A stretch of DNA of 32,000 nt from Candidatus Saccharimonadota bacterium (GCA_963677765.1 OY782392.1:570001-602000), one strand, 5' to 3'. Counted from the first letter of the stretch, positions 6,001-32,000 are shown. Made by a program: numbers and translations. The notes: a model not told the origin generated them from the letters alone.

Positions 6001-9000
6001 TATTCAGTAGAAACAAAAGCTTTAAAATACTGACATATTCAAGTATGACTTTTTGAAGATTGAGAAGCTTGAGATGATTTATTTTGAGATATTTTATTAA
6101 AAGATAATGAAGAAAACTGTTGATTAGAGTTAGAGATTTTTAGATCTACTTCAGTAAGAACTTACCAAAAAGGTATAAAAGAGCCTATTTGTGATGATGA
6201 GATACCAGAAGAATTAAGCCAAAATTGAGTTGATGAAAACAATAATTGAATACCTGATTATATAGAAGAATTAACTTGAAGTACTCAGGCATTACAAGAT
6301 TATTCAGAAGAAACATTAAATGATATGTTTCTTGATAGTGATTGAGACTGATTGCCTGATGAAGAAGATTTGTTTAATTGATGATGAACTATTTCTATTG
6401 ACTTATGAAGTTTATGAGATGATATAGAAAATTGATTAGAATCAGTTGAAAACTTGATCAACTGAATGAGTTGTTGATTTAATAATTGAGCATGTTTTGC
6501 AAGTCCATTAAACTGGGCTCCACTTGCTCCTTGAGGAGATCCAACTTTTAATTGAATGATGATATGAGATTGACTTAATATAGATGAAGGTTTACCTATA
6601 TTTTCAGCTATAACATGGACACCTATTTATGTTCCTGCTTGTGTTCCAATACCTACTGTTTGGCCTATGTCTTCATCTGCTATATGGTCTGCTTGTTCAT
6701 CATGACCAGCATGAATGGATTGAGCTTGAGGTTCTCTATGAGTTTATTCTCCTACAAATACTTTTAGACTTTTTGTTACTCCTACACTAACATGATGAAT
6801 TTGAGTTGCTGCTTGTTTTTGAGCTCCCCCTATAGTTGCTTGATACTCAAACATGCCTTGAATTTCACCATTATTTCCAGGATGAAACTGTATAGTAGTA
6901 GCTAAGCCTTTAATATGATGTAGTAATGATTGATCTGATTGAAACCCTGCTTCTATGTGACAAGTTATAAATTGATGAAGTTTTTGATTTATAAACTGAA
7001 ATTGTAGTGTTGATGATTCTTGAAATTTATCTGTTGATAATTGATATGTTGATAATTACTATGATCATTTAGTTAATTGAACTAATTATGAGTGATTAAG
7101 TTCTGCAAATGAAGCAATTTCTGATCATTCTACAGCTTGAAATTGACCGCTTTTTGCTATAGCTTGAACTTGAAATGAAATATCTGTTACTGTTGATCCA
7201 AATAGTAAATCTGTAGACTTTTCTGATATAACTGAATTAGTTCAAAAAAGAATTCAAGCTTTTCCTTGATTTCTTATGAATTGGGTTACAAGACAAATAG
7301 AAGAAATAGTTACTAAATTAACTGATTTTCCGACTATTTTTGTAATATTACCTGATTTTTCTTGAATTTTTGATACTGACCTTACATGGGAAGAAAATAG
7401 AAAAATGTGGTTTGAAAATTCTTGAAATAAAAATAGAGCTGAATCTATGAATTGAGTTACTTTAGATTCAGATATAACTAAGTGAATTAATACTGATAAT
7501 ATTGAAAATGAAAAATTAAGGAATGCTTCTGAAAGTATAAACAGTGCAAGTTCAACTTTGAATGAAGAATTTAAAAAGGTTGATTCTTGAATTAAAGAAG
7601 CCTATGAATTTATTGGTAGTTTACCTTTGGTAAAAATAGAACAAGAACCAGTAGATATTCAAGTTCCTTGGATTTCTGTAACAGAAATAGATAAAACTAT
7701 TTTAACACGGGAAAAAACAATAGAATCTCGGAGAACAGAAATTAGTAATTTTTCTGATTCTTGGACTTATTGAGCTACATGTGATGAATGAGATCAAGAA
7801 TGTTTAGATAAAAATGCTGCTTATGAAAAGATTATAGTTGACGCAAATGCTTTAGTTTCATCATTAGAAGCTAATTTAGATGCTATAAATGACTACAAAG
7901 AAATTCCAGAAAAAATAAATAAACTTATTACAAAAAAGGAAGAATATTTAGAACAAATATTATGTAATATTGAAACTATTTCTGAAATTTTGGGATGACG
8001 GATAGGTAAAAACTGAGAAAGATTTAAAGCTTGGGTTGAATTATATGTTTTAATAAAAGCTATTTTGAAATCTTGGCAATTATTAATCGATGTATTTGTT
8101 GATTATGAAGAAGAGTGTAAAGAATGTAAAAATGAAAGACAAGATTTACTAGGTTCACAATTCGAATTAATTAGTATGGTTGTTCCAGATATACCTGTTA
8201 TTCAATTTCCAAAATGGCCTGATATTATTATTGATTTACATAATATAAGGGCATGAATGACAGTATTATTACCAGAATTTAATATATCAACTAAGCCTAT
8301 ATTATTACCAGAATTACCAAATCTTTATTTACCAGAATCTCCAAGTGTAAATATTAGTCTGCCAAGTTTACCAGTAATTCCTACTTTAGAAATACCAGAA
8401 TTACCTGACTTACCAAGCTTGCCAACAGTAGAGTTGCCTGATTTACCACCACCACCAACACTACCAAAAATGTTTGCACAATTAGAAGCTATACTTGATG
8501 TATTGAAACTGATAACTAAAGCTATGTGTATATTAAAATCTTCACCATTCCATCCAGAATGGAGGGCTTGAGATCAAATTGCTTTCTTAACAGAAAGAAA
8601 CTGATATCTACCTACTGATTTTCTTAATATATCAATGCCACAATTCTCATTTCCATTTATTGATGCAATAAAAGTTACAACATATGTTAATTTAGAATTT
8701 GAAACAGAATTTATTGTTGAACTTGCTAGACAAGTTGCAATGCCTATAAATAGTTTTACTTCAGATTTCACTAATTTGTTTAATATTAGTACTAATGATT
8801 TAGATTTCAGAGGTTATACTCCTAGTCAAATTGATATTGAAATTTGAACTGATGGTTGAGCTGATACTAATATATGATTAAATGAATCAAATAATTCTAT
8901 TTCTGAATTAGTTACATTTATTCTTACTAAAAATATATTATTAGGTAATGATTATATTAAAGATAATAAAGATGTTACAGTTACTAATTTAGAATTTAAA

Positions 9001-11733
9001 CAACTTATTTCAGAAAACTTATCTTCTGATAAATTTACTTCTGATCCAAGATTTGATGAATTAAGAGAACTTTGGAATAATGTAAATAATTATTCTTATT
9101 CTTGAGAAAATAAACTAATAGATGAGTTACAAAAAAATAATTTTGAAAAATTTGAAACTTTAAAAGATATTGTTAATACAGAAATTATTAAAAATAAATC
9201 ATTTAAAGAAGATTTTAATGATATTATTAATAAGAAAACAATAAAAACTTCTTTATATAGTGATACTCAAGTTGAAAACTATAATAATATGTTGGATACT
9301 TATAATAAGAAGTTTTATGATACTGCTATGAGTTTAGTTTCTTATGATTCAGTAAATGATAAAAATAAACAAGATATTATTAGATCATGAGAAAAATTAA
9401 TCACACAAGTTAATACTGCATTATCTTCTTATACTTCTTGAATTAAAAATACAAATAATTTAATTGCAGCAAATACTACTACTTCAGATAACCAATCTTA
9501 TACTTGAAACAATTATCTTAATAGTGCTGAAAATTCATGTTCTTCTTGAAATAGTAATTCAGATTATTCTTATGTTTATGAATGAATATATATAATAGAA
9601 GATGATAAATCATATAGATTATTTGATTATCTTAGTGAGTTAAGATGAGATGAAGAAGTTGTTATTACTGATAGTGAAAAAGATAGTGATGAAGATTTAT
9701 TATACTTATCTAATGGTACATTATATTTAAAAAATAATTTAGATATAATTGATGAAAATGATGGAAGTAAATCAAATCCATTATTTGTAAGTAAAAATGA
9801 TAATAAATTTTTAAATGATAGTAACTTTATTTCTTCAGTAAATAATGTTAGAGAAAGAAGTGTTTGATCATGAGTTATTAATTTATGATTTACTGGGGTT
9901 CCAGGTATATATAATTATAGATTTAGCTTTTATACTTTAGTTGATAGATTTTTAAATGAAGATAATACTTCATATACACCTATTTTTAGAAAAAAATCTA
10001 TTGTTGATTCTTTTGCTTGAGTAAATGAAGTAACTTTTGTAGAAGAAAATGATAATTATATTATTAGTAAAAATGTTGTTTCTATTGATAATTTATGAGA
10101 TTTAAGATGAGTTAAAATTGAAACAGACGAATTAAAAAATATAACTAATGATATAATAGCAGGTAAGGTAATAGTTTTATCTAACCAAACTAAAGTATAT
10201 TCTTGAGATTCTACAGCTGTAATAAGTTATCTTGATGATAATAATGACTTAAAAAATGTTGTTATATCAAAAAATAGAAATATGGAAGTAAAAGGGTCAA
10301 TGAAAGTTGTTTCTATAACTTGAAATGCATATGTAAAAACTTGAAATGATCTAATACTTGAATGAACTGATATTTTATCATTAAAATGACTACCTCTTTT
10401 TGAATGAACTAAAATATCATATATAGGTAATGATTACGAAGTAAGAGATAATACTTATATTGATTTAAAATATTATGATGGCTCTGAGTTACCAATTTGA
10501 TTTACAAAAATTTCAGATTGGTCATATAATGATTTATGAAATATTTCTACTAATTATCTTCTTTCTATAAGTAGAAATAATGATTATTATTATTGAGTAA
10601 TAAATTGATTTAAAGATTGATTAATATCTACTAGCTCAAAACAAATACTATTATCACCACAAATTCGTGCTGATAATAGTATTCCAGAAATTAATTTTTC
10701 ATCTATAAGAATTCCTGTATATCAACAAATGGATATAAATTTAACAAATAGTATTTATGATAATAATTGAGTAGCTCAAGTTTATATCGATTTTGATTTA
10801 GATATTGATAGTTCATGAGATTGAGATCCAAGAAATGACAATGATAGTTCATCTATGGATACTTTAGATATTTATAGAAATTCTGATTTAGATTTTGTTT
10901 TAAAATTATGAACTTTCAAAGAGTTATATGACAAAGAAATTTGAATAATTGCAATTGATGATAATTGAAACGAGGCTTTTCAAAAAGTAAAATTTGAAGT
11001 ATATAGCCCTATACCAAAAATTGTTAATTATGAAGATAACAATATAATTTGAAATATAAATGAAAATTTAAATCAAGAACCTATCTCTCTATATAGATAT
11101 AGATGATGAGTTATATCTAAACTTACATGAGATGAAAATTGAAATATAGTTTATACACAAGATTGAGAATATAATTTTTGATTAACTGAAAATACTACTT
11201 GAAAAGTAAATATATTTAGTGATTGAGTTGTAATTGCAGAGATTAATGAAAATACTGGTTTAATTAACTTGAATGATTCAAGTTATAATATTGATGTTTT
11301 AGAGTCTAATAATATAAATAACGATACTGTTTATCCAAAAATGGTTTTAAATAAATCTTGAGAAGAATTATTTTATCAAACTATAAAGGTTAAATCATGA
11401 ACTAAAGTTAATATTGTTACTGATTTTTCTGGTATAGAAGAAAATGGTATTTATGTACAATTTTTAGATAAAGTTAATTATAATTTTAATTTAATACCTG
11501 AAAATGCTAGTTATAACTGAGGGGATATGATGATTTATAGATTAAATGATTCTAATAACAGTCCTTTATTTATAATATTTAAAGATTGAAGAATAAATAC
11601 TTTAAATAACAACTATAGCTTAAAATATGATAGTTTTAATGACTATATAGTTATAAAATTATTTGATAATAATTTTAATAGAGAAGTAGCCAGTGTTCTT
11701 TATAAGGTTGATAGTGACTTTATAATAAAATAA
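1..11733 (+). CDS. Giant secreted/surface mosaic protein, 5'-partial (at least 3,910 codons in window), putative adhesin
   Basis: Read codon by codon, frame 1 has no TAA or TAG from nt 1 to the TAA at 11731-11733. The standard-code ORF-track fragments at 976, 3517, 5524, 8065, 8257 and 8635 all lie in this frame and are separated only by TGA. The ORF contains Ig-like repeats, FG-GAP-like repeats (GDFTGDGFFDIFFVGDDG; VFDMDNDGIDDIITLDDAGEINIFYG), DxDxDG-type motifs (DSDGDGLPDEEDLF) and a proline-rich LPxLP block. A strong hairpin follows the stop. Confidence 0.8.
2040..3790 (+). other. Array of Ig-like (Big_1/invasin-like) beta-sandwich repeats inside the giant CDS
   Basis: The translation shows recurring ~90-100-aa modules with the pattern D-x-(D/Y)-(G/N)-N-x-(V/I), then T..G.....(L/I)...., for example TILDEYDNPVSGNFYDLRFNIDGNGVVF...KGKNTINVALLDNDGNFII and VSVELKDKYNNLVFTDNSTITEIEIL...SNGKSIFKIYGTVNPGVGYFKI. 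This is pattern recognition only, with no HMM run. Confidence 0.45.
5128..5352 (+). other. FG-GAP / VCBS-like (integrin-alpha-type) repeats inside the giant CDS
   Basis: The peptides K-T-G-D-F-T-G-D-G-F-F-D-I-F-F-V-G-D-D-G-Q-P-Y-M-L-N-N and V-F-D-M-D-N-D-G-I-D-D-I-I-T-L-D-D-A-G-E-I-N-I-F-Y-G match the D-x-(N/D)-x-D-G-x-x-D-hydrophobic consensus. Several of the Gly residues are TGA-encoded. Confidence 0.6.
8257..8475 (+). repeat. Proline-rich (L/I)P-x-LP peptide repeat block inside the giant CDS
   Basis: The translation reads LLPEFNISTKPILLPELPNLYLPESPSVNISLPSLPVIPTLEIPELPDLPSLPTVELPDLPPPPTLP. This is visible directly in the ORF-track peptide at 8257. Confidence 0.75.
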
Positions 11734-14489: not shown

Positions 14490-15734
14490 TTATTTTTTTG
14501 CTATCAATAATCAAATCAAAAGAAATGTTAGTATTGACAAATATGTTGTTTCAAATGTATGTAAAAATATATTCATAACTATTATTGCTGATAATACTCA
14601 AAAATATATTTTAGAAACTCAATATAATCTTACTAATGTAATTCACAAAATTGATAAAAATGTTATGAAGAATATTATTCATCATTCTGTTAATACTTGT
14701 ATAAACCAACTTTCAGGAATATAGTATTGTTCATCTTCTTTTGTTAATTTTTCAGGATAGATATTTCTATAAGCAGGTCATGATTCAGCTAGTCATGCTC
14801 ATAGTGGTTTTTCTTTGAATCTATCTATTCAAATTTCCATTCTATCAAAATGTCATGTTGTAGATGATGTTCTAAATATTATATTTTTTAACTGATCTTG
14901 AAAAATAAAACTAAATGCTCATATTGTTATTATAAAAAATATTGATATATGAATTAAATATTTTTTTAATTTTCTATATATAAATTTGAAATTTAATAAT
15001 ATAAGTATTCATACTGAAGTTCATATTCATAAAATAGCACTTCTAGAATAAGTTAATACAACTAACCATAGAAAAAATAACATAGTAGCTACAACATAAA
15101 ACTCCCATTTTTTCTTTTGTAAGTATAAAAAAGTTCAAGAGAATAGTATCAAAAAGTATGCCATTGCACTTGGACCATCAAATATTCACTGAAACCTTCT
15201 TATTCAAGAGTTTTCTAATCAATGGTATATAGGAACTCATCATTGATACACCCAGTTACTTATGTAGTCAATATATCAAAACTCCATTAAAAACTCTTCT
15301 TTTAATCTAAATTTAATTAAAAAACTAAACAATAAAGCTCCAGCTCATGAATATAGGAAAGTTTTAATTATATCTATTGTTTTTATTTTTAGAAATTGTT
15401 CTCAGTGTTTATATATCAATAAAACAATTAGGAACATAAAATCATATCTTCAACCATATATTATACTGTTTAATCATAATCAATTATATATGGTTATTCA
15501 TACTCAATATATTATATAGAAAAATACTAGATAATCTAAAATTTCGAACTTTGGAAATTTTTTAGCTTTGATGAATTCATAAATTAAACTGAAAAAAATT
15601 ATTACTAATAATCATTCTTTAAATATAAATCATATTTTATCTATTCAAGTTAGGTGATTTAGATATACTGATAAAAAAACATAAAAAGGTAAAACTATTA
15701 CTGCAAACCTTGTAAGTATAGTAAATAAGTTCAT
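14490..15734 (-). CDS. O-antigen ligase / Wzy_C-family polytopic membrane protein (414 aa); possible O-oligosaccharyltransferase or surface-polymer ligase
   Basis: The reverse-strand ATG is at 15734-15732 and the TAA at 14492-14490, giving 1245 nt. The translation has many hydrophobic helices plus the family hallmarks ...RRFQGIFDGPSAMAYFL..., ...LTYSRSAILG..., ...TTGHFDRMEIGIDRFKEKPLGAGLAESGPAY... and ...IPESWFIQVLTEGGI.... Confidence 0.75.
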
Positions 15735-15775: not shown

Positions 15776-15808
15776 AAAACAATAAAAAAGTAAATTTTTT
15801 ATTGTTTT
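15776..15808 (-). terminator. AT-rich hairpin overlapping the GT4 stop codon (putative terminator)
   Basis: A 14-bp perfect stem aaaacaataaaaaa / ttttttattgtttt has a 5-nt loop. The stem contains only one G:C pair, so its stability is modest. Confidence 0.45.
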
Positions 15809-16929
15809 ATTATGTTTTTTATAAAATTTATATGATTTTCTTCATCAAATTTTTCTGCTTGTTTTATACAGTATTCTTTTTTATACAATCAATTTATATT
15901 ATTCGAATGAAATATTTTGAATTTTTCTATAAAATCTTTTCATTCTTTATCTTCAAAAAAGTATCAAGTTTTTCATGAGATAACAGTTTCTTTTAGTCAT
16001 CATCAATTATATGCAAATACAGGTTTTCAAGCAGCCATTACTTCTATAGGAACTATTCAAAAATCTTCTTCTCAAGGAAAAACTAGTCATAGAGAACTTT
16101 GTACTAAAGATACTAATTCATCATCATATTTTGCTCATAAAAATTCAATATTTTTATTTTTTACTAATTTTTTTAGTTCTGCTTCATAATCTCATTTTCA
16201 TATTATTAATAATTTTTCATTTAGATGATTAAATCAATTAATGGCAATATCAATTTTTTTGAATTCTGTTAATGCAGATATTATAATATAATAATTTCAG
16301 TATTTATTTTCTTTTTTTATTTCTTTTTGAAATCTTTTAATTTCTACAGGTGGGTATAATAATTCTGAGTCTTTTCTATAGTATTTTTTTATTCTGGATC
16401 TAGTATTATTACTATTAGCTAAACTTGTATCCACTCTATTACTTGCAATATAATCCCATTTTCTATTTTCAAATAAAATTTTATTTATAATAGGTTTTAG
16501 AATATATTTTTTAAATCAATTATTTAATCATAGATCATTTTTATATTCATTAGTCCAGTCCCATAGATATCTAGCTGGTGAATGGTAGTAGACAATAAAC
16601 TTTGTTTCTGGTTTTGTTATTGCTCAGTGTGCAAATCATGAACTAGAGCATAATACAATATCATATTTTGAAAAATCAAGACTTTCTACACTTTTTGACA
16701 TAAATGGAAGACAAAATCTTTGTTTTTTAGTTAGTTTATATATTTTTTGAGTTTTTAAATTAAATACTTGTTTGTCTATTTTTTCTCTTTTAAATATTTT
16801 TCCTACTTTTTCTTCATCATATATCAATGTAAATAAGTCAGTATCAGGGAAAGCTTTTAACCAGTTTTCTACTACTTTTTCTGCTCATCATAGTTTTATA
16901 AGCATTTCATGTAATATAGCTATTTTCAT
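15799..16929 (-). CDS. Glycosyltransferase family 4 (GT-B fold, 376 aa)
   Basis: The reverse-strand ATG is at 16929-16927 and the TAA at 15801-15799, giving 1131 nt. The N-terminus MKIAILHEMLIKLGGAEKVVENW is typical of GT4. The C-terminal E-x7-E region reads [33 protein letters not shown], with several Gly residues TGA-encoded. The standard-code ORF 16636..16827 (-) is an in-frame fragment. Confidence 0.85.
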
Positions 16930-16986
16930 CTTTTTCTCTTTATTATATTTTTTAATGTTTTTTAAATAATAATTATTTTTTGAAAA

Positions 16987-17013
16987 AAATGAATTTTTTG
17001 TTAAAATTCATTT
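16987..17013. promoter_or_regulatory. Perfect 11-bp inverted repeat in the divergent GT4/pilin intergenic region
   Basis: The repeat aaatgaatttt-ttgtt-aaaattcattt ends 23 nt upstream of the first pilin ATG at 17037. Confidence 0.35.
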
Positions 17014-17036
17014 AAACTAGTATTTAAATAAATTTT

Positions 17037-17459
17037 ATGAAAAAACTTATTAATTATTTTTTTATAACTATATTGTTACTTTTTTCTTTCTCTTTTGTTA
17101 ATATAACACATGCAGAGATAAGAGATTGATGTGAAACTTGAGGATGCTTGGATGAACCAAATTTTGAAATAAATGTATGAAGTATTACTCCAGGTATTGT
17201 TTCTCCTTCAAATGCACAAAGTTTAGAGCAAAGAGCTAATTGGATTTTATGAACTATTATACAAAATCTAATGGTAGCACTATGAGTTCTTTCTGTTTTA
17301 ATAATGACTATTTGAGCTTGATATATTATATTAAATAATTGACAAGATGAATTATTAAGTAAATGAAAATCTATTTTTATGGCATGAATATATGCTATGG
17401 TTATAGCTTTAACTTCTTATTACTTAATAGCAATAGTTAGATATATGTTATATGCTTAA
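17037..17459 (+). CDS. VirB2/TrbC-like T4SS-pilin-family protein, paralog 1 (140 aa)
   Basis: The translation is MKKLINYFFITILLLFSFSFVNITHAEIRDGCETGGC...ANWILGTIIQNLMVALGVLSVLIMTIGAGYIILNNGQDELLSKGKSIFMAGIYAMVIALTSYYLIAIV. The architecture is a signal peptide, a Cys pair, TM1, a short charged loop and TM2. The ATG is at 17037 and the TAA at 17457-17459. Confidence 0.65.
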
Positions 17460-17469
17460 AAAAATAATT

Positions 17470-17856
17470 ATGTTTAGTAAAATATCCTTAGTAATATTAT
17501 CTTATTTTTTATTGTTTAATAGTTCAGTATTTGCTTCGTCAGCTCCAACTGTTAATTGTGCTTGACTTCCATGATGTAAGGATAATTCTATAGTAAATCC
17601 TTCATCGGCATCACAATTAAACAATAATATTTGATTGAGCTTTATTGATAGTATAGTATCAAACTTGATACAATTTGTTGCTGTATTTGCTGTATTTGCA
17701 CTAATAATTAGTTGATTTATGTATTTACTTTCTTCATGAGATGAGGAGAAAACAAAAAAAGCAAAAAAATGGATTATTTGGTCTTTGGTTGCAGTTTTAT
17801 TATCTATTTCAGCATGGTCAATAATAAACTACTTAAATAGTATTCAAATTTGATAA
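17470..17856 (+). CDS. VirB2/TrbC-like T4SS-pilin-family protein, paralog 2 (128 aa)
   Basis: The translation is MFSKISLVILSYFLLFNSSVFASSAPTVNCAGLPGC...LIQFVAVFAVFALIISGFMYLLSSGDEEKTKKAKKWIIWSLVAVLLSISAWSIINYL. The loop S-S-G-D-x-x-K-x-K-K-A-K between two TM helices is the signature I recognise from CPR and Gram-positive T4SS pilins. Confidence 0.7.
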
Positions 17857-17873
17857 AATTTAATAAAATAAAA

Positions 17874-18260
17874 ATGAAAAAAATATATTATATAATTTTA
17901 TTTCTTGTATTTACTTGAAATAATTATGTTTTTTGAAACAACACTGATGGAAGTATTAATATCAAAGATAAATTGATAAATTCTACTAATTCTAATTTTG
18001 CTTGATGAAAGTTAAATGATGATAATTGATTATTATCATTATGAGCATTATTTGCTTGGTTAAAAACTGAGCTTATGGCAATTGTTTCAGTTGTAGCTAT
18101 AGCTATATTTATTTATATAGGTATTAAAATGGCTACTGCTAGATGAAATCCAGAAGAATTCAAGAAAGCTTGGCTTCATTTTGTTTATGCTATAATATGA
18201 ATATTTGTTGTTTTCATGGCTTATTGAGCTGTTACTCTTATTTCAAACTTAAATTTATAA
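17874..18260 (+). CDS. VirB2/TrbC-like T4SS-pilin-family protein, paralog 3 (128 aa)
   Basis: The translation is MKKIYYIILFLVFTGNNYVFG...LMAIVSVVAIAIFIYIGIKMATARGNPEEFKKAWLHFVYAIIGIFVVFMAYGAVTLI. It has the same signal/TM/charged-loop/TM topology but no Cys pair. Confidence 0.6.
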
Positions 18261-18269
18261 TAAAATATA

Positions 18270-18674
18270 ATGAAAAAAATAATTTTAATATTTGTTTTAA
18301 TTTTTTCTTTATTTATATCAGTTAATGTATATTGATCTTGTAGTTATAATGAATGATCATCTATATCTTCAAATCTTAATGATTGTTTATCTTGAACTAA
18401 ACTTGTTAATATTACTGATTGAAATGCTAAAATTTCTGATTGATTCTGAAATTATATAAAAAAATGGACAAATAATATAGCTTTATATTTGTGAGTATTT
18501 GCTGTTTTTGCGATAGTATTTGGTTCTATTATGCTTACTATTAGTGCTTGAGAAGATGAAAAAATAAGTAAAGCAAAAAATATAATAAAGTGGTGAATTT
18601 TAGGTTTTTTAGCTGTAATATCTGCTTCTTTTATTATAAATCTAATAATTAGAATAGTTTATAATTTATGATAA
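18270..18674 (+). CDS. VirB2/TrbC-like T4SS-pilin-family protein, paralog 4 (134 aa)
   Basis: The translation is MKKIILIFVLIFSLFISVNVYGSCSYNEGSSISSNLNDC...IALYLGVFAVFAIVFGSIMLTISAGEDEKISKAKNIIKWGILGFLAVISASFIINLI. The TAA at 18672-18674 overlaps the next ATG as TAATG. Confidence 0.65.
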
Positions 18675-19558
18675 TGTTTAAAAAAAATAAAATATTTTTA
18701 TTTATATTTTTAACAGTTTTTTTTAGTTTTTTGGTTTTTATAACAAAAAACTATTTTTTTTGATGATTTAATAATTATGAAATAGAATATATTGAACAAA
18801 ATTATATTGATCCAACTATTATAAATGATTTAAATAATGAAAAAATAATAGATGCTAGTTTTGTAGATTTAGATAAAAAAATAGAAGAAAAAATTTTATC
18901 TAATTTAAATTCAGCATCTAAAATAGATTATTCATTTATTCCTCAGTCTTTTTTAGATGAAGAAAAAGCATTTCATCATTATGAAAATTATGATTTATTT
19001 TTAAATCTAGATAACTTTTATTCAAGTATAAAAAATCTAGATGTGATTTTTTATAAAAATAAATGAGTTGTTAGGTGAAATATGAAAAATAAAACTATTA
19101 GACTTTACTGATTAAATGAACTTTCTTATTGAGAGGTTTTATCAGTTTGAATACATGAATTCTCTCATTATTTGGATTTATATATTTTAGACAATAGTAA
19201 ATGAACAGATATTAGTAATGATTTTTATAATATATCTTGGGAGTCAACAAAAGTTTTAAAGGCTTGACTTAGTCAAGTTGATTTTGTTTCATGATATTCT
19301 ATGACAAATAAATATGAAGATTTTGCAGAAAGTTTTACCTATTATGTTTTACATAATGATGACTTTTATACTAAAGCTAAGAAATCAGATTTTTTAATGG
19401 ATAAATATAACTTTTTTAAAAATAATATTTTTAAAAATTGAGAATTTATTACAAATGATTTTAAAAAAACATCTAAAATAGAGGATTATTATCGGGATGT
19501 AACAAAAATAGATTTTTATTTAGAAAATTTTTTGCAGTATTTAAAAAAATGAATATAA
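18674..19558 (+). CDS. Membrane-anchored HExxH zinc metallopeptidase-like protein (294 aa)
   Basis: The ATG at 18674 overlaps the pilin-4 stop. The N-terminal TM segment is MFKKNKIFLFIFLTVFFSFLVFI. The motif SVGIHEFSHYLD (HExxH) is followed ~50 aa later by NKYEDFAESFTYYV. This recalls the HEFGH...EFFAEAF arrangement of anthrax lethal-factor-like (M34-type) zincins. The TAA is at 19556-19558. Confidence 0.6.
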
Positions 19559-19825
19559 TCAGCTCACCAAAACAAAAGTAACTTTCTTTTTTATAGGAAA
19601 AAGTGCTTTTATCTATAAAAATAGTTCAAAAGTAATCAAACATTATCACGTTTATATTTTGCCCATTTTAAAAACGGGTAATTATTTTATTGCCTAAAAT
19701 AGATATTATTAATTTTTTCTATTATTTTAATTAAGCTAGGTATTTTATCAATATATAAAATTGTTTGTAAAACTATTTAAATTATTTTTATATGATATAT
19801 TTATAATATATAATTTAATTTTTAA

Positions 19826-23752: not shown

Positions 23753-23995
23753 ATGTTAGGAAAATTAAAAAAAAGAAAAAGACTTAGAGTCCACGGATTT
23801 TTAAAAAGAAGTTCAACAGACTCAGGTAGAAATGTTTTAAAAAACAGAAGAAGAAAAGGAAGACACCAATTAGCAGTTTCTTATCCAAAAAGATTTCAAG
23901 AAATTAATGGTAAAGCTAAAATGCATATAGTTGCTTGAGGTACTGCAAGAAAATCATCTTTTGATGGTAAAGGAAACTATGTAAAAAGAAAATAA
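23753..23995 (+). CDS. rpmH: Ribosomal protein L34 with an unusual C-terminal extension (80 aa under code 25)
   Basis: The sequence [42 protein letters not shown] matches the whole canonical L34. The frame then continues [20 protein letters not shown](TGA 23936-23938)[18 protein letters not shown] to the TAA at 23993-23995. Confidence 0.85.
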
Positions 23996-24020
23996 TTTTA
24001 GTTTTTAAGTATTTTTTCAG

Positions 24021-24362
24021 GTGATATCTAAAAAATTTAGATTAACTGAAAGGCAAACAAAAAAGGTTTTACAAAAGTGAAAACCTTTTTTTTCTTATTG
24101 AATAGTTTTAAACCATATTAGAAATAATCTAGGTTATAATAGATTTTCAATAGTTATTTGAGCCAAATCAGTTAATAATAATGTGTGAAGAAATTTCTTT
24201 AGAAGAAGGTTTTTTAACTTTGTTCAAACAAATAATGTTTTTGTTTGATGAAGTGATTATGTTTTTGTTATAAAAAAACAAACAAAACTTGATAAAAATG
24301 ATAAGAAAAGTATATTCTCTTTTGATAAAGATTTAGATTTTTTATTAAATAAAGTAAAATAA
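24021..24362 (+). CDS. rnpA: RNase P protein component (113 aa), GTG start
   Basis: GTG at 24021 is the first plausible start after the in-frame TAA at 24006-24008. The translation is (M)ISKKFRLTERQTKKVLQKGKPFFSYGIVLNHIRNNLGYNRFSIVIGAKSVNNNVGRNFFRRRFFNFV..., with an RNR-type basic motif. The gene sits in the conserved position between rpmH and yidC, and its TAA overlaps the yidC ATG. Confidence 0.7.
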
Positions 24363-25528
24363 TGAAAAAAATATTAGATATTTTATTGATAGCAGTTTTA
24401 ACGATTTTATTGTTTAATCTGTTAGCATGAGATAATGAAAAAAAATTAAATGATACATTAAATATTTCATTTGTTGAAAACAGTTATACTATACCTGCAT
24501 CTGTATGAGTAAATATTAATAATCAAACATCAACTGGAGTAATATTAAATACTTGTAATGATATTAATTTACTATATTCATGAAACAAATTAACTTTTGA
24601 TGAATCTTTTTGTAAAGATATAGAAGTAAAATCATGAGAAAATTATTTGCTTGATTATAAAGATTATTATTCTAAATTTGAAAATGTATGAGAATATACT
24701 TTAAATGCTAAAGTTTGAGAAAAAGAGTATTTTGATCAATTTGAATTAGATAATAAATGAACTATAAAAAAAATATTTATTTATCTTTTCTATGCTCCAA
24801 TTTATAATTTAGTTATATTTTTAATAGAATTATTTAATTGAGTATTTGGTTGGGCTATAGTTTGAGTTACAGTTATATTGAGAATCTTGTTACTTTGGCC
24901 TCAACATAAAATGATGTTAAGTCAAAGAAAGTTACAATCAATTCAACCTAAAATTAAAAAAATTCAAGAAGAATTTAAGTGAAATCAACAAATGATAGGT
25001 ATGAAAATGATGGAATTATATAAAAAAGAAAATGTAAATCCAGTATGATCATGTGGTTTTTTACTTATTCAAATGCCTATATTATTGGTAATATATTATA
25101 TAATTATATGAATACAAAACCCATCTAATATATATTATTTATACGGTTTTCATGATTTATTTACTTTATCTGAAATAAACTTTAGTTTTTATTGATTAAA
25201 TTTATTACAAAATTGATGAATTCAAGGTTTAATTTTAGCTTTAATTGTTGCATTAATACAATTTATACAAATAAAATTATCTCTTATTAATAAATCAAAT
25301 GATGATAAAAAATCATGAGTAGTTTTAGAAAAAAAATCATGAGATGATAAATATAGTAGTATGATGCCTGATCCTGATATGATAAATAAATTTATGTTAT
25401 ATTGAATGCCTGTAATGGTTTGAATATTTACATATAGCTTATTTGCTGCAGTTTGAATATATTGGTGAATTTCTACATTGTTTATGTTATTTCAACAATT
25501 AATTGTTAATAAAATAATTAAAAAGTAA
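24362..25528 (+). CDS. yidC: Membrane protein insertase YidC/Oxa1 family (388 aa)
   Basis: The translation is MKKILDILLIAVLTILLFNLLA...GWAIVGVTVILRILLLWPQHKMMLSQRKLQSIQPKIKKIQEEFKGNQQMIGMKMMELYKKENVNPVGSCGFLLIQMPILLVIYY.... The TAA is at 25526-25528. Confidence 0.85.
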
Positions 25529-25534
25529 AGTTGA

Positions 25535-25570
25535 CTAATAACAATATCTTTGCACTTATTAGAGTTTTTT
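25535..25570 (+). terminator. Weak hairpin plus T-run after yidC (possible terminator)
   Basis: A 7-bp stem ctaataa / ttattag has a 14-nt loop and is followed by agtttttt. Confidence 0.3.
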
Positions 25571-25605
25571 ATATTATATATACATTATATGTTAATTTTT
25601 TAATT

Positions 25606-26283
25606 ATGTTTAAAAAGTCTTTGGCATTATTTATGGTATTATGATTAACTTCAACTAATCTTTTATATTCTTATGATCAAGAAGTTGAATGTTCTTCAGA
25701 TTCAGTTTTCTCTGAATATTCATGTACTCAATGTTTTGATGGTTGAGAAAAATCAGAATGAGCGTATATAAGCTTATTAAGTGATGATTGGGAAAATATT
25801 TCTGGTGTTTCAAAAGTTTTATATACTGAACAACAAAAAATGCCAATAATGCATAACTTAAGTAGTAATGCTTCTTGGTCTCAAACTCCTTCTTCGGAAG
25901 ATTTTTGGAGTTATACTGAAGATTTTGAAAACCTATATTCAGAAGAACAATTATGATATGTTTTACAACCAGGTCAAAGTGTAAAATGGTTAGAATCTAA
26001 TTTATCTTATGCTTATTCTTTGGATACTAATACAGCTTCAAAATGAGAAAATATCTGACTATTAGTTTATTCTATATTAAGTCATAATATATTAGATTCA
26101 GGAGAAGTTTCTATGAATAGTGAGGCTCATAATGAATGTGTTTTGTATAAATCATGAGATGAAAATGATGTTACTCCAACTGTACCACAAACTTTACCTC
26201 AAACAGGTCCTGCTGAATTTTTATTATTATTAATATTAGCAATGATATTAGGTTTTTGAATAATAAGATTTAGAAATAGTTAA
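25606..26283 (+). CDS. LPXTG-type (LPQTG) sortase-anchored surface protein (225 aa)
   Basis: The signal peptide is MFKKSLALFMVLGLTSTNLLYS. The C-terminus is TLPQTGPAEFLLLLILAMILGFGIIRFRNS, that is LPQTG (26194-26208), a hydrophobic helix and a basic tail. The TAA is at 26281-26283. Confidence 0.75.
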
Positions 26284-26427: not shown

Positions 26428-29400
26428 ATGTTTAACTCATTGACACAAATTATATCATTTTATAAATTAATGATAAAATCACAAGTTATGTGAGAATCTA
26501 CTTGATGAGCATGAAGTGAAATAAATAGTCAACTTACAGAAAAAAATAAAGAACAGTACTTAAATGATAATAAAGATTTAATTATCTCTTATTTAGAATG
26601 ACTAGATTCAGATGATGATAATCTTTTGGAGTTTTCTGATTTTTCAGATAATGATAATGATTTATTATCAATTGGTAGAATTATTAGAGCGTTATGAATG
26701 GATACTATAAAATTGCAAGATGGTATTAATATATCTGAAGTAGTTTCTAAAATAAAAAATTTTACATTAGAAGTAAAAGAAGTAACTGATAAATCTACAA
26801 GTCAAAGAGTTGAACTATCTAATGAAGTTGAATCAAATTTATCTTTAGATAATAGATTTTCAAGTTTATCTGAGTTAGATTTATTTAATATAAGAATGGC
26901 TTTCGATAGACCAGTAGATAAGACTTCTTATGATTTTGATAGAAAAGGTGTACAAAGAGCACTTAATAATATGGGATATGATATATCTTATACAAATAGA
27001 AAAGGAGAATTAGTAACTTGAGAAAATGCTATTGATTGAGATTTAGGTTCTGCATATACTAGAGCATTAAAACAATTACAATCTGATCTTTGAATAGCTC
27101 AAACTTGAGTATTAGATCAAACTACAGTTGATTCTTTTCAATCTAGAATCCAACCTCTAATATATAGAGCTGAGCAAAATAATGAATCTTCTAGTGAATC
27201 AAATACAGAAGTATCTCAAAAAGATCAAAGAGATAGAACTATAGAAGAAAATGACTCTAGTTTAAAAATTACATTTTGAGTTGGTAAAACAGATTTTGAA
27301 TGATTAAAAGAAAATATTAATACTCAATCATTTGAATCATTAGCTAAAAGATTATCTTTTGAAGAATTATCAAACTTATACAATAGTCTTATTTCAATAT
27401 CTAGAAAAAATAATTTAAATGAAAGAACTTGAGAATTTAATTTTACTCCTTTCAATATTAGAGAACTTAGAGTTGAACTAGAAAAATATTGATATGAAGC
27501 TGATTGAGTTTTTTGATGAATTGAAATGTGATCACTTTTACAATTAGTAGAAAATATTTATCAAACACAAGAAAAGTTTAATAGTTGAGTAGATTTTAGA
27601 GATAGATTAGCTGTATTATTAGATTATAATGGTGATTGATTTGTTGATAATGAAGTTAGATTTTATACTAAAGAAAAACAATTTTTAGAAGCAATTCAAT
27701 GAGAATCTAATTTTGAAAACTTACTAAAAAATTTATGATATTCTTCAATTACTGAATTTAATAATTCTTTTAATAATAACTATTATTCTGCTAGAGCTGA
27801 ATTTAAAACTAGATTAGCTTCTGTATTATCAGTAGAAGAAGTTTTAAATCCAGGAGCTATGTTAAATAATCCTAGTGCATTAAGAGAATTTAGAGATTCT
27901 AGAGAAAATATATCTAATATTGAATCAGAAGTATCAGAAGTAATAGAAACTCATGAAAAAACAAAAAATTTAGATCCTTTATTAAAGTCTCAAATTAAAT
28001 TACAAGCTGTATGAGCTGTTGTATGATCAGCTACTTGATTATGAGCATCATTTGATGTAAAAGAAGCTACTAATAGCTTAATTGATTCTGCATGATTTGG
28101 TATATTTAATTGAGTTCCATGAATAGGTATTTGAAAAAATATATATAGAACAGAAAATGGTTGATTTAGAGTAGATGCTTGACTTGTAAATTTAATACCA
28201 GTTTTAGGTGCCTCATGAGATTTAACTCAGTGAGAAATTGATGAATTTAAATCATTATTTCCAAATGAATTTTCATGAGATTCTCAAATATCACTATGAG
28301 CAGGTATTTCAACTTTAGGTTGAACTGTTTGAGTTAATTTTAATAATCTAAATGAAAATACTAGATTATGAATAGAAAGAGCTAAAGGACAAATGTCAGA
28401 AGTGTTAGATAAGGTTTTTGAAGATATTCAAGATTGAAAATCATTTGATGAAAGTAATTTTTCTTCTAATGAAAACGATAGAATTGTTTATGAGAGATTA
28501 GCTTGAATGTTAGAAGCTAATTGATGACATACTTCATATTTAAAAGAATGAGCATTAAATAATTATGAAAGAGTTTTATATGAAAATGCAGATTGATTAA
28601 ATTTTAGTTCTTTATGATTTGGTCTTGCTTTTGTTGCAGGATATTTACCTATACCATTAATTTTTGCTTGATGAGAATATCATGATACAGAGTGGTCTAG
28701 TGTAGAAACTTATACTCCAATAGTTGAATCATGAAATTGATATGTTGAGTCATGAATTGAGTGAAATAATGAATTATTAAATAGTTTATCTTCATTTGAA
28801 AATGCTTTTTCTTGGAAAACTCGTTATAATAAAGGATCAGTTGATTTTTTAACAACAACAAATTCTCTTGAAAAAAGATGGGAAGGTTTAAATAGATTAT
28901 CTACTTGAGTTAGAGCTTTAAGAGAATCTAAATTACAAGATTTTTTAGCTTGAATTGATAATAATAATGATAAATGGGTTGTTATTTCAACATTATCTCA
29001 ATATATGAAAAAGGCTAATGATTTTGATAATTGAAATTTATTTTCTTGGAATGAAAAAACATCAGAATTTATAAAAACTGATAGAGAAAGAAGATCATGA
29101 TTTAATGATATGTTTTGATTTAATTTGGATTCTGAAGCAGAAGCTTTATATTCAAAATTGGAATCTAGTACTAACATATGAAAAACTCAACTTATGGGCT
29201 TATGATTTGATGCTACTGCAAGTAAAAATGTTGAAGGAACTACTGTAAAATGAATTGATACACTTTATACTAATTTAAGTATAATGACTGTAGATTGAGA
29301 ACCTTTATTAATCTCTATTACAGATTCTTCAAAAATTGAATCATTTAAACAAACTTTAAATACTTTATCTATAAGTGATGAATTAAAACAAAGTATTATT

Positions 29401-29691
29401 TCATGATTAGAGAACTGAGATATTGAATTAAAATATTATAAAGATCCTGAAGGATTTGATGATAGAATATTATTAACTCAAAAATGAAATTCAGGAACTC
29501 CTCAAATTGATGTTTATCAACCAAACTTTAATACAGTTAATGTATGAATAGGTTTCGCATGAGATAAAAGAGAAAGTGATTGAGGTTCTAATTGATGAGT
29601 AACTTCTACTCCATGAGTTGAATGAGAAGAAGGTCCTGGTACAGGTTGAGGAAATGGTAATCCTTGAAACCAATCAGGATGAAGATGATAA
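26428..29691 (+). CDS. Large hypothetical protein (1,087 aa) with a peptidoglycan-binding (PG_binding_1-like) domain and Gly-rich hydrophobic segments
   Basis: ATG 26428 is the first start after the in-frame TAA at 26407-26409, and the frame is open to the TAA at 29689-29691. Nucleotides 26941-27140 translate to RKGVQRALNNMGYDISYTNRKGELVTGENAIDGDLGSAYTRALKQLQSDLGIAQTGVLDQTTVDSF, which fits the G..V..LQ..L..GY...DG.FG..T..A...FQ...GL..TG pattern. The central segments are LQAVGAVVGSATGLGASF, ISLGAGISTLGGTVGVNF and LGFGLAFVAGYLPIPLIFAGG. The tail is ...GPGTGGGNGNPGNQSGGRG. The standard-code ORF 26698..27021 is an in-frame fragment. Confidence 0.7.
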
Positions 29692-29710: not shown

Positions 29711-29902
29711 ATGAAAATTCTAAAAACTTGACTTTTTGTTATTTTATCTATAATTTATTTAACTTGATGTTCAAATACAAATGTAGATGATAATCATAAT
29801 GATGATAATTTATCAAAATATATTGAATTAGAATCCTTTCAAGATTGAGGTGGTAATTGAAACCCTTCTAAGCAAACTTGAGAAAGAATAAATAATAATT
29901 AA
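29711..29902 (+). CDS. Small lipoprotein (63 aa)
   Basis: The translation is MKILKTGLFVILSIIYLTGCSNTNVDDNHNDDNLSKYIELESFQDGGGNGNPSKQTGERINNN. The lipobox L-T-G-C lies at 29759-29770, with its Gly encoded by TGA at 29765-29767. The gene starts 19 nt after the previous stop. Confidence 0.6.
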
Positions 29903-29910
29903 TTTTCTTT

Positions 29911-32000
29911 ATGAAAAAATATATAATTTTTATAGCATTTTTAAGTCTATTTGGTAATAGTATTTCACATGCTTGTGATCAGGTATTTGATTGAGGTTTT
30001 TTAAGATATGATTACTCATATAGGTTTTATGATGACTTTCATAATAATACTAACAGTACTATATACTTTAACAACTATAGTGTTGATTTTATAAACTGAT
30101 CTTTCTTAGATTCAGGTTGATCTTTTTGATGGACAAATAATATTGCAAATAATTGATATCAATTATGATCAAGATCAAGTACTAGGGTATTAGAAACATC
30201 TGCACCAAAATGGAGAATTGATTCAAAACCTTCTTCAAGAACTAATTGAACAAGAAATAGTTATGATTTCGGTATAGAATATACTATTGCATATGACTAT
30301 TCTAATAATTATCCAGATTCAAGTGATGATTATTCTCATAAGGAATGTGTTTATTATAGTGTAACTTGGTGTTGAGATGGTGTATTAGATAGCTCTTATG
30401 AAACTTGTGATTATAATGATCCAAATCAATTATGATGGTGAACAGGAGGTTGTAATACTAGTTGTGAACCTATAAATGATACAACTTCAAGTTCAAGTTC
30501 GTCTAGTTCTTCTAGTTCGTCATCATCTAGTTCGAGTAGTTCATCTTCAAGTTCTAGTTCATCTAGTTCATCATCATCTAGTTCAAGTTCGTCTAGTTCT
30601 TCTAGTTCGTCATCATCTAGTTCGAGTAGTTCATCTTCAAGTTCTAGTTCATCTAGTTCATCATCAAGTTCAAGTAGTTCTTCTAGTTCTTCAGGTTGAT
30701 CAAGCTCTTCAGGTTGAAGTAGTAGCTCATGATGATCAAGCTCTTCAGGATGATCTAGTAGCTCATGATGATGAACTCCAGATACATTTTGTTGAGATTG
30801 ATCAGTTCAAAGACCTAGTAATAATCCTTATTCTTGTGTTACATGATATGATTCTACATGAAATCCTATTAATTGAGAATGTTATGAATATATTTTAGAA
30901 GAATGTGATTATTGATCTTGAACATGGCCTTCTTGGTGTTGAGCTCCATGAACTTCGAGTCAATGTAAAATTACATGAGAATTATCTTTTCCATGAACTG
31001 GTGAATTAATATTTTGACCAGAGGATAATGTTACAATTTGAGATTGAATGAACCCATATTTTACTTATTCTCTTAGTAAACCTTATATTAGAAATAATTC
31101 GTCTTTTGATTACCATTTTGATGAATTATGTGTAGTTAAAAAATCATGAAATACTTTGGATTGAAGTACTACATGTCAATCTATGCCAGATATATTATGA
31201 GCATGACAAACTTATTATTTTACTAATTATCCTATATTAGTTTGAAATACAAGTAGTTTAACAGCATGAACTTATGATGATAATTTGGTAGTTACAACAT
31301 TGAAAAATGATGGTAGATTATATGATGATGCTTTCTTTGCAGCTGAATTATGAGTTAGAGTTTCTAAACCTAGTATAGCTACAACATGATGAGGTACTAG
31401 TTTTCTTAGTTCTACTGATTGAATATCTAATGTAAGTGTTGTTACAAATAATAAATCTAATAGTGATGAAAATAAAAACTTTGTATGATTAGGAGTTTCT
31501 ACATGAGATATTTCTAGTTATTCAGATGAACTTAATGATTCATCTTCTATAGATTTAGTTAAACAAGAATGAGATGACTATAGTATAAAATCAAACTCTA
31601 ATTCTGAGTCTACATGAATTACATTAGCAACTTCTAATAGCTTATCAGATTTTGAAAGTTATAATTGAATAAGTAATGCTTTTGTTTTGAGGGATACAGA
31701 CTTTATAATTAATTCTTCAACTCTATATTGAGAAACTTGAGTAAGAACATATATAATAGAGTGAGGTAATTTGTTTATAAATTGAAATATATTATATCCA
31801 AGTAATATTGCTTTTGTTGTAAAAGGTTGAAATATTATTATAAATAAAGATGTTTCAAGAATAGAATGAACTTATATTACTATAGCTAATTGAAGTGAAG
31901 GTTGAGATATAAAATCAGACTGAATAAAAACAACTAATACTTTAAATGTATTTTGATCATTGTATTGAAATACAAATGATTTAGTAAATAATAGAACTTA
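29911..32000 (+). CDS. Secreted Cys-rich-repeat / poly-Ser surface protein, 3'-partial (at least 696 codons)
   Basis: The signal peptide is MKKYIIFIAFLSLFGNSISHA. The motif WCGDGVLDSSYETCDYNDPNQLGWGTGGCNTSCEP resembles the CGDG...ECD...C cysteine-rich repeat known from Myxococcus. A 69-Ser run (30487-30693) and (S4G2)n follow, then a second FCGDGSVQRP...EECDYG. Later repeats such as GGNLFINGNI and KGGNIIINKDV look beta-helix-like. The frame stays open to the window end. Confidence 0.75.
30491..30666 (+). repeat. Perfect 90-bp tandem duplication (about 1.96 copies) inside the poly-Ser tract
   Basis: Nucleotides 30491-30580 are identical to 30581-30666, at which point the copies diverge. This was verified block by block in 10-nt blocks. 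It also explains the duplicated peptide in the artefactual ORF 30476..30898. Confidence 0.95.

Follow-up and report, generated by a model that had tools for sequence, protein, structure and literature searches.

A 32,000-nt stretch of genomic DNA (GCA_963677765.1, OY782392.1:570001-602000), referred to here as the window and numbered from its first letter, was analysed with emphasis on positions 17037-19558. Under translation table 25, five closely packed genes are located in this region on the plus strand: four small genes encoding pilin-like proteins (pil1 to pil4) of the kind found in type IV secretion systems (T4SS), and a fifth encoding a membrane-anchored metallopeptidase (Table 1). Together they make up a chromosomal, origin-proximal operon which is conserved across Gracilibacteria. 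The intergenic spacing within the array ranges from -8 to +17 nt. An alternative ATG of pil2 at 17470 would give a protein of 128 aa and leave a 10-nt gap after pil1. The stop codon of pil4 (TAA, 18672-18674) overlaps with the peptidase ATG at 18674 (TAATG). An earlier note on this DNA, made from the sequence alone, had described the tandem five-gene layout including this overlap, and its coordinates could be reproduced under table 25.

Gracilibacteria are ultra-small, host-dependent bacteria in which UGA is decoded as glycine. The GC content of the window is 20-31%. With translation table 11 only fragments were predicted and about 4% of the DNA appeared to be coding (open reading frames, ORFs, of at least 100 aa), while the reading of TGA as a sense codon gave about 100% coding. 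The genes of the window (1-32000) each contain between 1 and 75 in-frame TGA codons. For PyrH, 11 out of 17 in-frame TGA codons aligned with glycine and none with tryptophan of E. coli PyrH; the positions aligned with glycine include those in the SGE, GGGN and GTGNP motifs. UGA is therefore read as glycine and table 25 applies, in agreement with the code adopted in the earlier note. Gene calling with table 11 misses the entire operon.

Table 1. Features of the window and of two related loci (L034, L085)
Feature	Position	Strand	Details
pil1	17037-17459	+	140 aa; ORF under table 25, 10 in-frame TGA codons
pil2	17452-17856	+	134 aa; 8-nt overlap with pil1
pil3	17874-18260	+	128 aa; 17 nt after pil2; upstream TTG at 17850 possible
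pil4	18270-18674	+	134 aa; 9 nt after pil3
Peptidase	18668-19558	+	296 aa from ATG 18668; 294 aa from ATG 18674
Divergent intergenic region	16930-17036	.	Between glycosyltransferase gene (-) and pil1 (+)
Non-coding gap	19559-19825		267 nt; separates peptidase from RNase J
GT4/GT1 glycosyltransferase	15799-16929	-	Glycos_transf_1, 86.2 bits
Wzy_C (O-antigen-ligase-like) membrane protein	14490-15734	-	Pfam Wzy_C, 56.5 bits
Giant ORF	1-11733	+	At least 3878 aa
rpmH-rnpA-yidC cluster	23753-25528	+
LPQTG protein	25531-26283	+
PG_binding_1 protein	26428-29691	+	1087 aa
Cys-rich secreted protein	29899-32000	+
Extra pilin-like gene	L034 13026-13424		Downstream of RNase J
PKD-repeat protein	L085 3592-6885	-	1097 aa

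A search with profile hidden Markov models (HMMs), which the earlier note had proposed as a check, assigned three of the four small proteins to the T4SS pilin family. On PF18895 (T4SS_pilin; gathering cut-off, GA, 26.6 bits) scores of 39.0, 37.4 and 33.7 bits were obtained for pil2, pil3 and pil4, respectively, the matches covering the helix-loop-helix including its charged loop. In addition, pil2 exceeded the cut-off of the NCBIfam model NF045849, 'Mbov_0395 family pilin-like conjugal transfer protein' (41.8 bits, cut-off 40), which describes a pilin-like conjugal transfer protein of mycoplasma integrative and conjugative elements. One pil4 orthologue is labelled 'pilin' at NCBI, and 11 close orthologues of pil4 were returned by a word-index search. 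No direct Pfam pilin match was found for pil1. As judged by sequence comparison, it is a homologue of the other three pilin-like proteins, with 36 bits against an HMM built from pil2-4. BLASTP between the paralogues gave E-values of 3e-15 (pil2-pil4), 2e-10 (pil1-pil4) and 2e-8 (pil2-pil3), and hhalign comparison of the four orthogroup alignments gave probabilities of 89-99.5%, with 98-99.4% for orthogroup 1 to orthogroups 4 and 2. Paralogy of the four small proteins, far above chance, is thus confirmed, at a pairwise identity within the array of 22-31%.

It is hardly conceivable that these proteins are not pilins, i.e. that they are holins, bacteriocin-immunity proteins or other membrane proteins for which the Pfam matches were driven by hydrophobicity. 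The scores are modest (34-39 bits) and weak matches to unrelated membrane families were also seen; however, three independent paralogues exceeded the curated cut-off of one family with the charged loop included, and a separate NCBIfam pilin-like model matched as well. A PHROG (holin) search with all five proteins gave no match at E up to 0.01, no holin or bacteriocin-immunity family was present among the Pfam matches, and the locus belongs to the core chromosome rather than to a phage or bacteriocin region. A better match of the holin or immunity type, considered in the earlier note as a way in which the pilin assignment could fail, did not appear.

Hydropathy analysis showed an N-terminal signal segment and two hydrophobic helices in each of the small proteins. 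Together with the BLASTP and HMM results this agrees with the proposed description as paralogous genes of 128-140 aa encoding a signal peptide, an ectodomain and a transmembrane (TM) hairpin. AXA-like cleavage sites could be recognised by eye at THA/E, VFA/S, VFG/N and VYG/S, and for pil1 the likely signal-peptide cleavage is at ...THA/EIR. All motifs quoted for the operon (DGCETGGC, NCAGLPGC, SCSYNEGSSISSNLNDC, the four charged loops, IHEFSHYLD and EDFAESF) were located. The ectodomain of pil1 carries the Cys pair DGCETGGC, that of pil2 a C-x-G-L-P-G-C loop and that of pil4 a conserved Cys pair, and pil3 is without Cys; the corresponding hairpin loops are NNGQDELLSKGK (pil1), SSGDEEKTKKAKK (pil2), ARGNPEEFKKA (pil3) and SAGEDEKISKAKN (pil4). 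A class III prepilin leader (G/FTLxE, PilD-type) is absent from all four N-termini, which have Sec-type signal peptides instead. Pilins of type IV pili and type II secretion systems were considered and rejected, given the missing class III signal motif and the presence of a second TM helix.

The relationship between the four positions of the array was examined by a positional orthology test on 62 non-redundant four-gene arrays. In 244 of 248 cases the best cross-genome match occupied the same position of the array, with mean scores of 86-101 bits for the same position versus 5-46 bits between positions, and two paralogues of one genome resembled each other no more than they resembled paralogues of other genomes. 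Column identity was 0.59-0.68 in the hairpin and 0.33-0.53 in the ectodomain. Each orthogroup consensus has a signature of its own: the loop GQDELLSKGK in orthogroup 1, C.GLPGC conserved over the 62 genomes in orthogroup 2, the loop ArGNpEEFKKa without any Cys in orthogroup 3, and a Cys pair about 17 residues apart in orthogroup 4. Positional orthology and these signatures therefore indicate non-redundant subunits and not a recently diversifying cassette. At the level of sequence, this argues for four ancient, order-fixed orthogroups that would be the subunits of one assembly.

The term 'diversified' cassette used in the earlier note is consequently misleading. A recently diversifying array that generates variation in antigens or host range, the explanation put forward for the VirB2 paralogues of Bartonella and Anaplasma, was considered very improbable. 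The low within-array identity and the position of the ectodomains as the most variable part fit this explanation, and the idea has been raised for Patescibacteria arrays (PMC12102498). It is contradicted by positional orthology, since each position is a separate orthogroup over the 62 genomes, the copy number is fixed at four, and same-genome paralogues are no closer than those between genomes.

The fifth protein matched Peptidase_Mx1 (PF15890), a gluzincin family of clan MA, with 32.2 bits (GA 25.6). Its catalytic motif H163-E164-x-x-H167 is accompanied by D170, Y210 and E217/E221, and H163, E164, H167, D170, Y210, E217 and E221 were invariant in 30 and in 40 orthologues. Structure models were built from orthologues of the window proteins. 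In the AlphaFold2 model of a peptidase orthologue (predicted local distance difference test, pLDDT, 83), a membrane helix at the N-terminus is joined by a disordered linker to a compact catalytic domain. These results agree with the expected TM-anchored HExxH protein. Because basic residues precede the TM helix, the predicted orientation is N-in, C-out, with the catalytic domain outside the cell.

Foldseek comparison of this model with the PDB gave as top matches anthrax lethal factor (1pwu_B, E 6e-4, query TM-score 0.34; 4xm6) and the Pro-Pro endopeptidase PPEP-3 (9g3t_B, target TM-score 0.51). In a PDB profile alignment, HEFxHxxDxY and YxxTNxxExFAExF were matched to lethal-factor segments with a marginal E-value of 0.042, and the closest sequence among solved structures was 9urd_A, a Bacteroidota Mx1 lipoprotein (E 0.004). 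Pfam ATLF (PF07737) was not significant for the window protein and is precomputed for some orthologues. In its motifs and predicted fold the peptidase thus resembles MEROPS family M34 (lethal factor/PPEP). The description 'lethal-factor-like zincin' given in the earlier note is a fair one in this respect, while formal membership of M34 is not established. For the top NCBIfam match, TIGR04549, the score of 35.7 bits fell far short of the cut-off (75 bits), and the TM anchor at the N-terminus has no lipobox Cys; membership of this lipoprotein family was rejected on both grounds. As far as can be judged from sequence searches, the peptidase belongs to a small, lineage-restricted family: hundreds of full-length orthologues were found, of which those with a name carry the Gracilibacteria label, and 130 clusters at E <=1e-30 and 1149 at <=1e-3 were obtained when 1.84 billion representatives were searched exhaustively with its profile. 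No pilin-peptidase (Rosetta-stone) fusion was found among the best 150 of the 1149 profile matches, all of which were <=395 aa.

For the analysis of gene neighbourhood, one genome per GTDB species was scanned, which gave 80 loci. With the addition of three loci fetched earlier and the window, and without three loci lacking a full-length peptidase ORF, 81 loci were analysed; three of these are duplicates, and the set is mostly one genome per species. ORFs were called with TGA as sense and then searched with the pilin HMM. At 65 of the 81 loci the peptidase was immediately preceded, on the same strand, by exactly four pilin-like genes; most of the other loci were truncated by contig ends. The conservation of the pilin-peptidase neighbourhood, proposed as a check in the earlier note, was thereby strongly borne out. 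The four-pilin loci span peptidase identities down to about 35%, and the cassette also occurs in lineages with a GC content of 43-54%, no in-frame TGA in the peptidase gene and a genetic code that looks standard. The spacing of pil4 and peptidase is <=10 nt, or an overlap, at most loci, and the pil1 orthogroup is kept at 67 of 80. Two long contigs, including the complete 1.34-Mb chromosome CP042461.1, match the gene order of the window over about 20 kb: on the left a giant protein, two secreted proteins, Wzy_C and a glycosyltransferase, then the divergently transcribed cassette of four pilins and peptidase, followed on the right by RNase J, a lipoprotein, PyrH, L34, RnpA and YidC. In one contig (L088) the cassette is kept despite different outer flanks, and Wzy_C and the glycosyltransferase are absent there.

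The model which we favour, with moderate confidence, is that of a heteromeric pilin structure with its T4SS parts encoded elsewhere and a surface peptidase encoded beside it. After export via Sec and cleavage by signal peptidase I, the pilins would be inserted as hairpins with the ectodomain outside, where the Cys pairs are probably disulfide-bonded. The four distinct subunits would then form one pilus-like or conduit structure at the host-contact cell surface, a putative counterpart of the essential T4SS pilin array of Saccharibacteria. The genes for the ATPase and the channel components would lie elsewhere in the genome, as published for the dispersed Gracilibacteria T4SS (PMC12102498). The peptidase is predicted to be a type-II-anchored, outward-facing zinc endopeptidase with a lethal-factor/PPEP (M34-like) active site, which would act on a substrate outside the cell, at this same surface. 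The exposed pilin ectodomains are the likeliest candidate substrate (maturation or trimming); alternatively, the targets could be proteins of the cell surface or of the host where the two are in contact, as is the case for PPEP-1 and the adhesins encoded beside it. The C-terminal tails of the pilins are only about 5 residues long, and any trimming would therefore have to be N-terminal.

Several observations weigh against this model. With respect to the pilins, the scores on TrbC/VirB2 (PF04956) were below the GA of 27.9 bits (pil2 23.2, pil3 24.5), so that pil2 and pil3 fall outside the TrbC model itself. The AlphaFold2 model of a pil4 orthologue, with a signal helix H2-23, a short ectodomain helix and long helices H60-95 and H99-136, is of low confidence (pLDDT 62), though its signal helix and two long helices match the hydropathy result. 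Foldseek comparison of the pilin model with the PDB gave nothing better than E 3.6, and a pilin profile search against PDB sequences returned chance matches only; the likeness to VirB2 is therefore without structural confirmation.

With respect to the peptidase, the main rival explanation is an enzyme that is independent of the pilins, either nutritional or PPEP-like. It would be a surface-tethered M34/Mx-type endopeptidase degrading host or environmental proteins for peptide uptake or, in an alternative role, releasing or remodelling the cell's own adhesins like PPEP-1, and it would be a member of the operon only because surface functions are co-expressed. We regard this as possible, although doubtful. 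Relatives of the enzyme are import-associated Mx1 lipoproteins of Bacteroidota (9urd_A and TIGR04549, see above), and PPEP-3 is among the top fold matches. At three loci (L056, L057, L064) a peptidase with intact active site adjoins RNase J with no pilins upstream, and distant Mx-like homologues (E 1e-10 to 1e-16), one labelled Peregrinibacteria and another Altimarinota, do not adjoin pilin arrays. The four ectodomain consensus sequences are largely variable, and no common motif that would mark a shared cleavage site was seen in them. The same block also encodes several giant surface proteins and a surface protein of LPxTG type that is conserved. Part of the synteny moreover reflects a long conserved block reaching from the giant protein to YidC, and not a specific functional link. 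On the other side, the tight coupling to pilin 4 (overlap or <=10 nt) has been kept over deep divergence despite changed flanks. At four loci positions 1-3 of the array are missing and pilin 4 and the peptidase alone are retained; this reduction of the array speaks against the model, while the survival of just this pair speaks against an independent peptidase. The link between pilins and peptidase is clade-specific and strong, but not absolute.

With respect to the T4SS, no VirB4-, VirD4- or VirB6-like gene was found in the window by the ORF and profile scan, which bears out what the earlier note had reported, and no VirB4/VirD4-like P-loop ORF was present within 10 kb of the peptidase at about 80 loci. 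VirB6 has been reported as undetected in Gracilibacteria (PMC12102498). Absence of a T4SS ATPase from the genome had been named in the earlier note as an argument against its reading, and this argument applies in part: Table S1 of PMC12102498 scores the complete, cassette-bearing genome GCA_004563595.2 (CP042461.1) as VirB4 'No' and two other JAEDAM01 genomes as 'Yes'. The supplements of a Gracilibacteria metaproteome paper contain no VirB terms, and PMC8406219 contains no text on T4SS.

These results are relevant to a second rival explanation, according to which the VirB2-like proteins of this clade act outside any T4SS. They would assemble, independently of VirB4, into a hetero-oligomer of the membrane or cell surface, such as a small pore, a conduit or an anchoring structure for the giant surface proteins encoded nearby, and the peptidase might assist in its assembly or maturation. 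This was held to be unlikely. Apart from the missing ATPase near the cassette and the VirB4-less genome, it is consistent with four fixed, non-redundant subunits, which suggest a defined complex and not a homopolymeric pilus, and with the location of the cassette among glycosyltransferase, Wzy_C and giant secreted protein genes. However, the pilin family is linked to T4SS elsewhere, a pilin gene being near virB4 in 1135 of 1948 assemblies, and VirB4 was found in 2,417 of 3,035 Patescibacteria assemblies (about 80%), some related JAEDAM01 genomes included (PMC12102498). Furthermore, the sole VirB4-negative genome depends on one published HMM scan. The more specific proposal that the four subunits build a VirB4-free hetero-oligomeric filament or conduit, with the lethal-factor-like peptidase as its dedicated maturation enzyme, appears quite unlikely. 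If true, it would represent a new route of pilus biogenesis, derived from T4SS and no longer dependent on it. The separation from virB4, together with the one genome listed as VirB4-less, makes it possible to test T4SS dependence by phylogenetic profiling.

Some further arrangements were seen at the related loci. In L056, L057 and L064 a surface protein of about 955 aa precedes the peptidase in place of the pilins. In L034, L046, L048 and L061, a sublineage with pilin 4 as the only array member upstream of the peptidase, RNase J is closely followed by a different pilin-like gene (117-132 aa, loop TAGGKEDNVKKGR). In L085, from a distant lineage, a PKD-repeat protein with a weak T4SS_pilin match is encoded two genes upstream of an Mx-like peptidase homologue and on the opposite strand; it may be a fusion of a pilin domain to an adhesin.

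The divergent intergenic region in front of pil1 presumably holds the operon promoter. The promoter scan gave one sigma-70-like match at 16980-17007, but with 31 promoter-like matches found versus 32 expected the frequency is that of chance in this AT-rich region, and the match is therefore not evidence. Terminator-scan matches were likewise at chance level, and no RNA genes were found in the window by Rfam and ARAGORN. The gap following the peptidase gene gave no Rfam match and folded no better than shuffled sequences (z = -0.9); the only feature observed there was a weak hairpin with a T-run behind it, near 19662-19695.

On the other side of the cassette, Wzy_C was present at no fewer than (at least) 43 of 80 loci and the glycosyltransferase at at least 49 of 80, with many loci ending at contig ends. 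Wzy_C is the hallmark domain of pilin O-oligosaccharyltransferases (PglL/TfpO). The pilin ectodomains are rich in Ser, Thr and Asn, and glycosylation of the pilins by these neighbouring genes is therefore a possibility. The giant ORF is open on its 5' side, where the window begins, and no stop codon occurs ahead of position 97. A sub-threshold FG-GAP repeat is the sole Pfam signal of the protein, and orthologues of 4161-4284 aa are encoded at the equivalent position in L001 and L003.

The rpmH-rnpA-yidC cluster, typical of origin regions, is located about 4-5 kb downstream of the cassette, and in the 1.34-Mb chromosome CP042461.1 the orthologous locus is found at 55-75 kb. The small secreted protein encoded next ends with LPQTG (26194-26208), a hydrophobic segment and RFRNS, a tail corresponding to a sortase-type cell-wall sorting signal; the protein is conserved in the same block at 27 or more of 80 loci. 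It is followed by a protein with a single PG_binding_1 domain and a Gly-rich C-terminus, whose counterpart in CP042461.1 (1288 aa) has the same domain at the same place; it may have a role associated with the cell wall and, conceivably, with the T4SS. The Cys-rich secreted protein, open at the 3' end of the window, contains 69 uninterrupted serines (30487-30693) and then GGSSSS repeats.

Pilin processing by an own protease has a mechanistic precedent in TrbC/TraF of RP4, where pilin and protease are encoded by the same system. Maturation of the RP4/IncP pilin TrbC requires the dedicated membrane-associated peptidase TraF, a LepB-like serine peptidase (S26) which trims and cyclises the pilin C-terminus, and VirB2 of the Ti plasmid is cyclised as well. 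Unlike TraF, the cassette enzyme is a zinc gluzincin, and pilin cleavage by it is putative. The linked surface metallopeptidase offers a concrete, testable candidate for a processing step. With PPEP-1/Zmp1, PPEP-2, PPEP-3 and lethal factor (M34) it shares HExxH and the downstream Tyr/Glu in Y-x6-E-x-F-A-E-x-F, but the similarity is marginal (E 0.04 to lethal factor) and the Pfam family is Peptidase_Mx1 and not ATLF. Unlike the PPEPs and lethal factor, which are secreted, the enzyme is TM-anchored. PPEP genes are found beside those for the surface proteins which the enzymes cleave; the proteins encoded around the cassette peptidase show no evident Pro-Pro site. The Bacteroidota 'substrate import-associated zinc metallohydrolase lipoprotein' (TIGR04549; 9urd) is also of the Peptidase_Mx1/Mx family. 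Unlike these lipoproteins, the cassette peptidase has no lipobox and no SusC/SusD or TonB context, and is characterised by a monoderm host and a TM anchor.

The VirB2 arrays of Bartonella Trw and Anaplasma phagocytophilum are similar in that several tandem, divergent genes occur in a host-associated bacterium. Those arrays are located in or beside a T4SS locus that is complete, and variation among their copies has been proposed to serve host range or immune evasion, whereas the four copies of the cassette are ancient and fixed. As each of the four subunits is conserved as its own orthogroup, a defined heteromeric assembly is favoured over antigenic variation.

The closest known systems are the tandem VirB2-like pilin arrays of Patescibacteria, published in 2023 and 2025 (PMC10633639; PMC12102498; PMC12857230), which set the T4SS of this group apart from all other monoderm systems. 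In total, 441 arrays of 2-11 genes with a mean identity of 25% were described in 383 Patescibacteria assemblies, T4SS genes being often near rpmH/rnpA/dnaA and the T4SS parts of Gracilibacteria being dispersed (PMC12102498). In Ca. Southlakia epibionticum the array comprises six pilins and is essential (PMC10633639; PMC12857230). The statement in the earlier note that the arrangement had not been described does not hold for tandem pilin arrays as such. Neither a link to an Mx1/M34-like peptidase, nor a fixed four-orthogroup architecture, nor a Gracilibacteria-specific operon was found in the papers searched. The cassette belongs to this recently described kind of array, named examples of which are the SEML1_0006-0019 cluster of Ca. 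Southlakia epibionticum and the 'Sec-secreted array' of Nanosynbacter lyticus TM7x, and is a lineage-specific variant of it. It has in common with them the PF18895/PF04956-type family, tandem small Sec-signal proteins with a two-helix hairpin, low identity within the array (about 25% in the known arrays, 22-31% among the four tandem genes here), a monoderm host of the candidate phyla radiation, and a chromosomal, origin-proximal location near rpmH/rnpA (rpmH 23753, rnpA 24021 and yidC 24362 in the window). It is distinct from them in three respects: the cassette is unlinked from virB4 and other T4SS genes, the number of its genes is fixed at four, with positional orthology throughout the clade, and it ends in a translationally coupled, lethal-factor-like (M34-like) metallopeptidase. 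With exactly four subunits, each an orthogroup of its own, the Gracilibacteria cassette thus represents a cleaner case of such an array.

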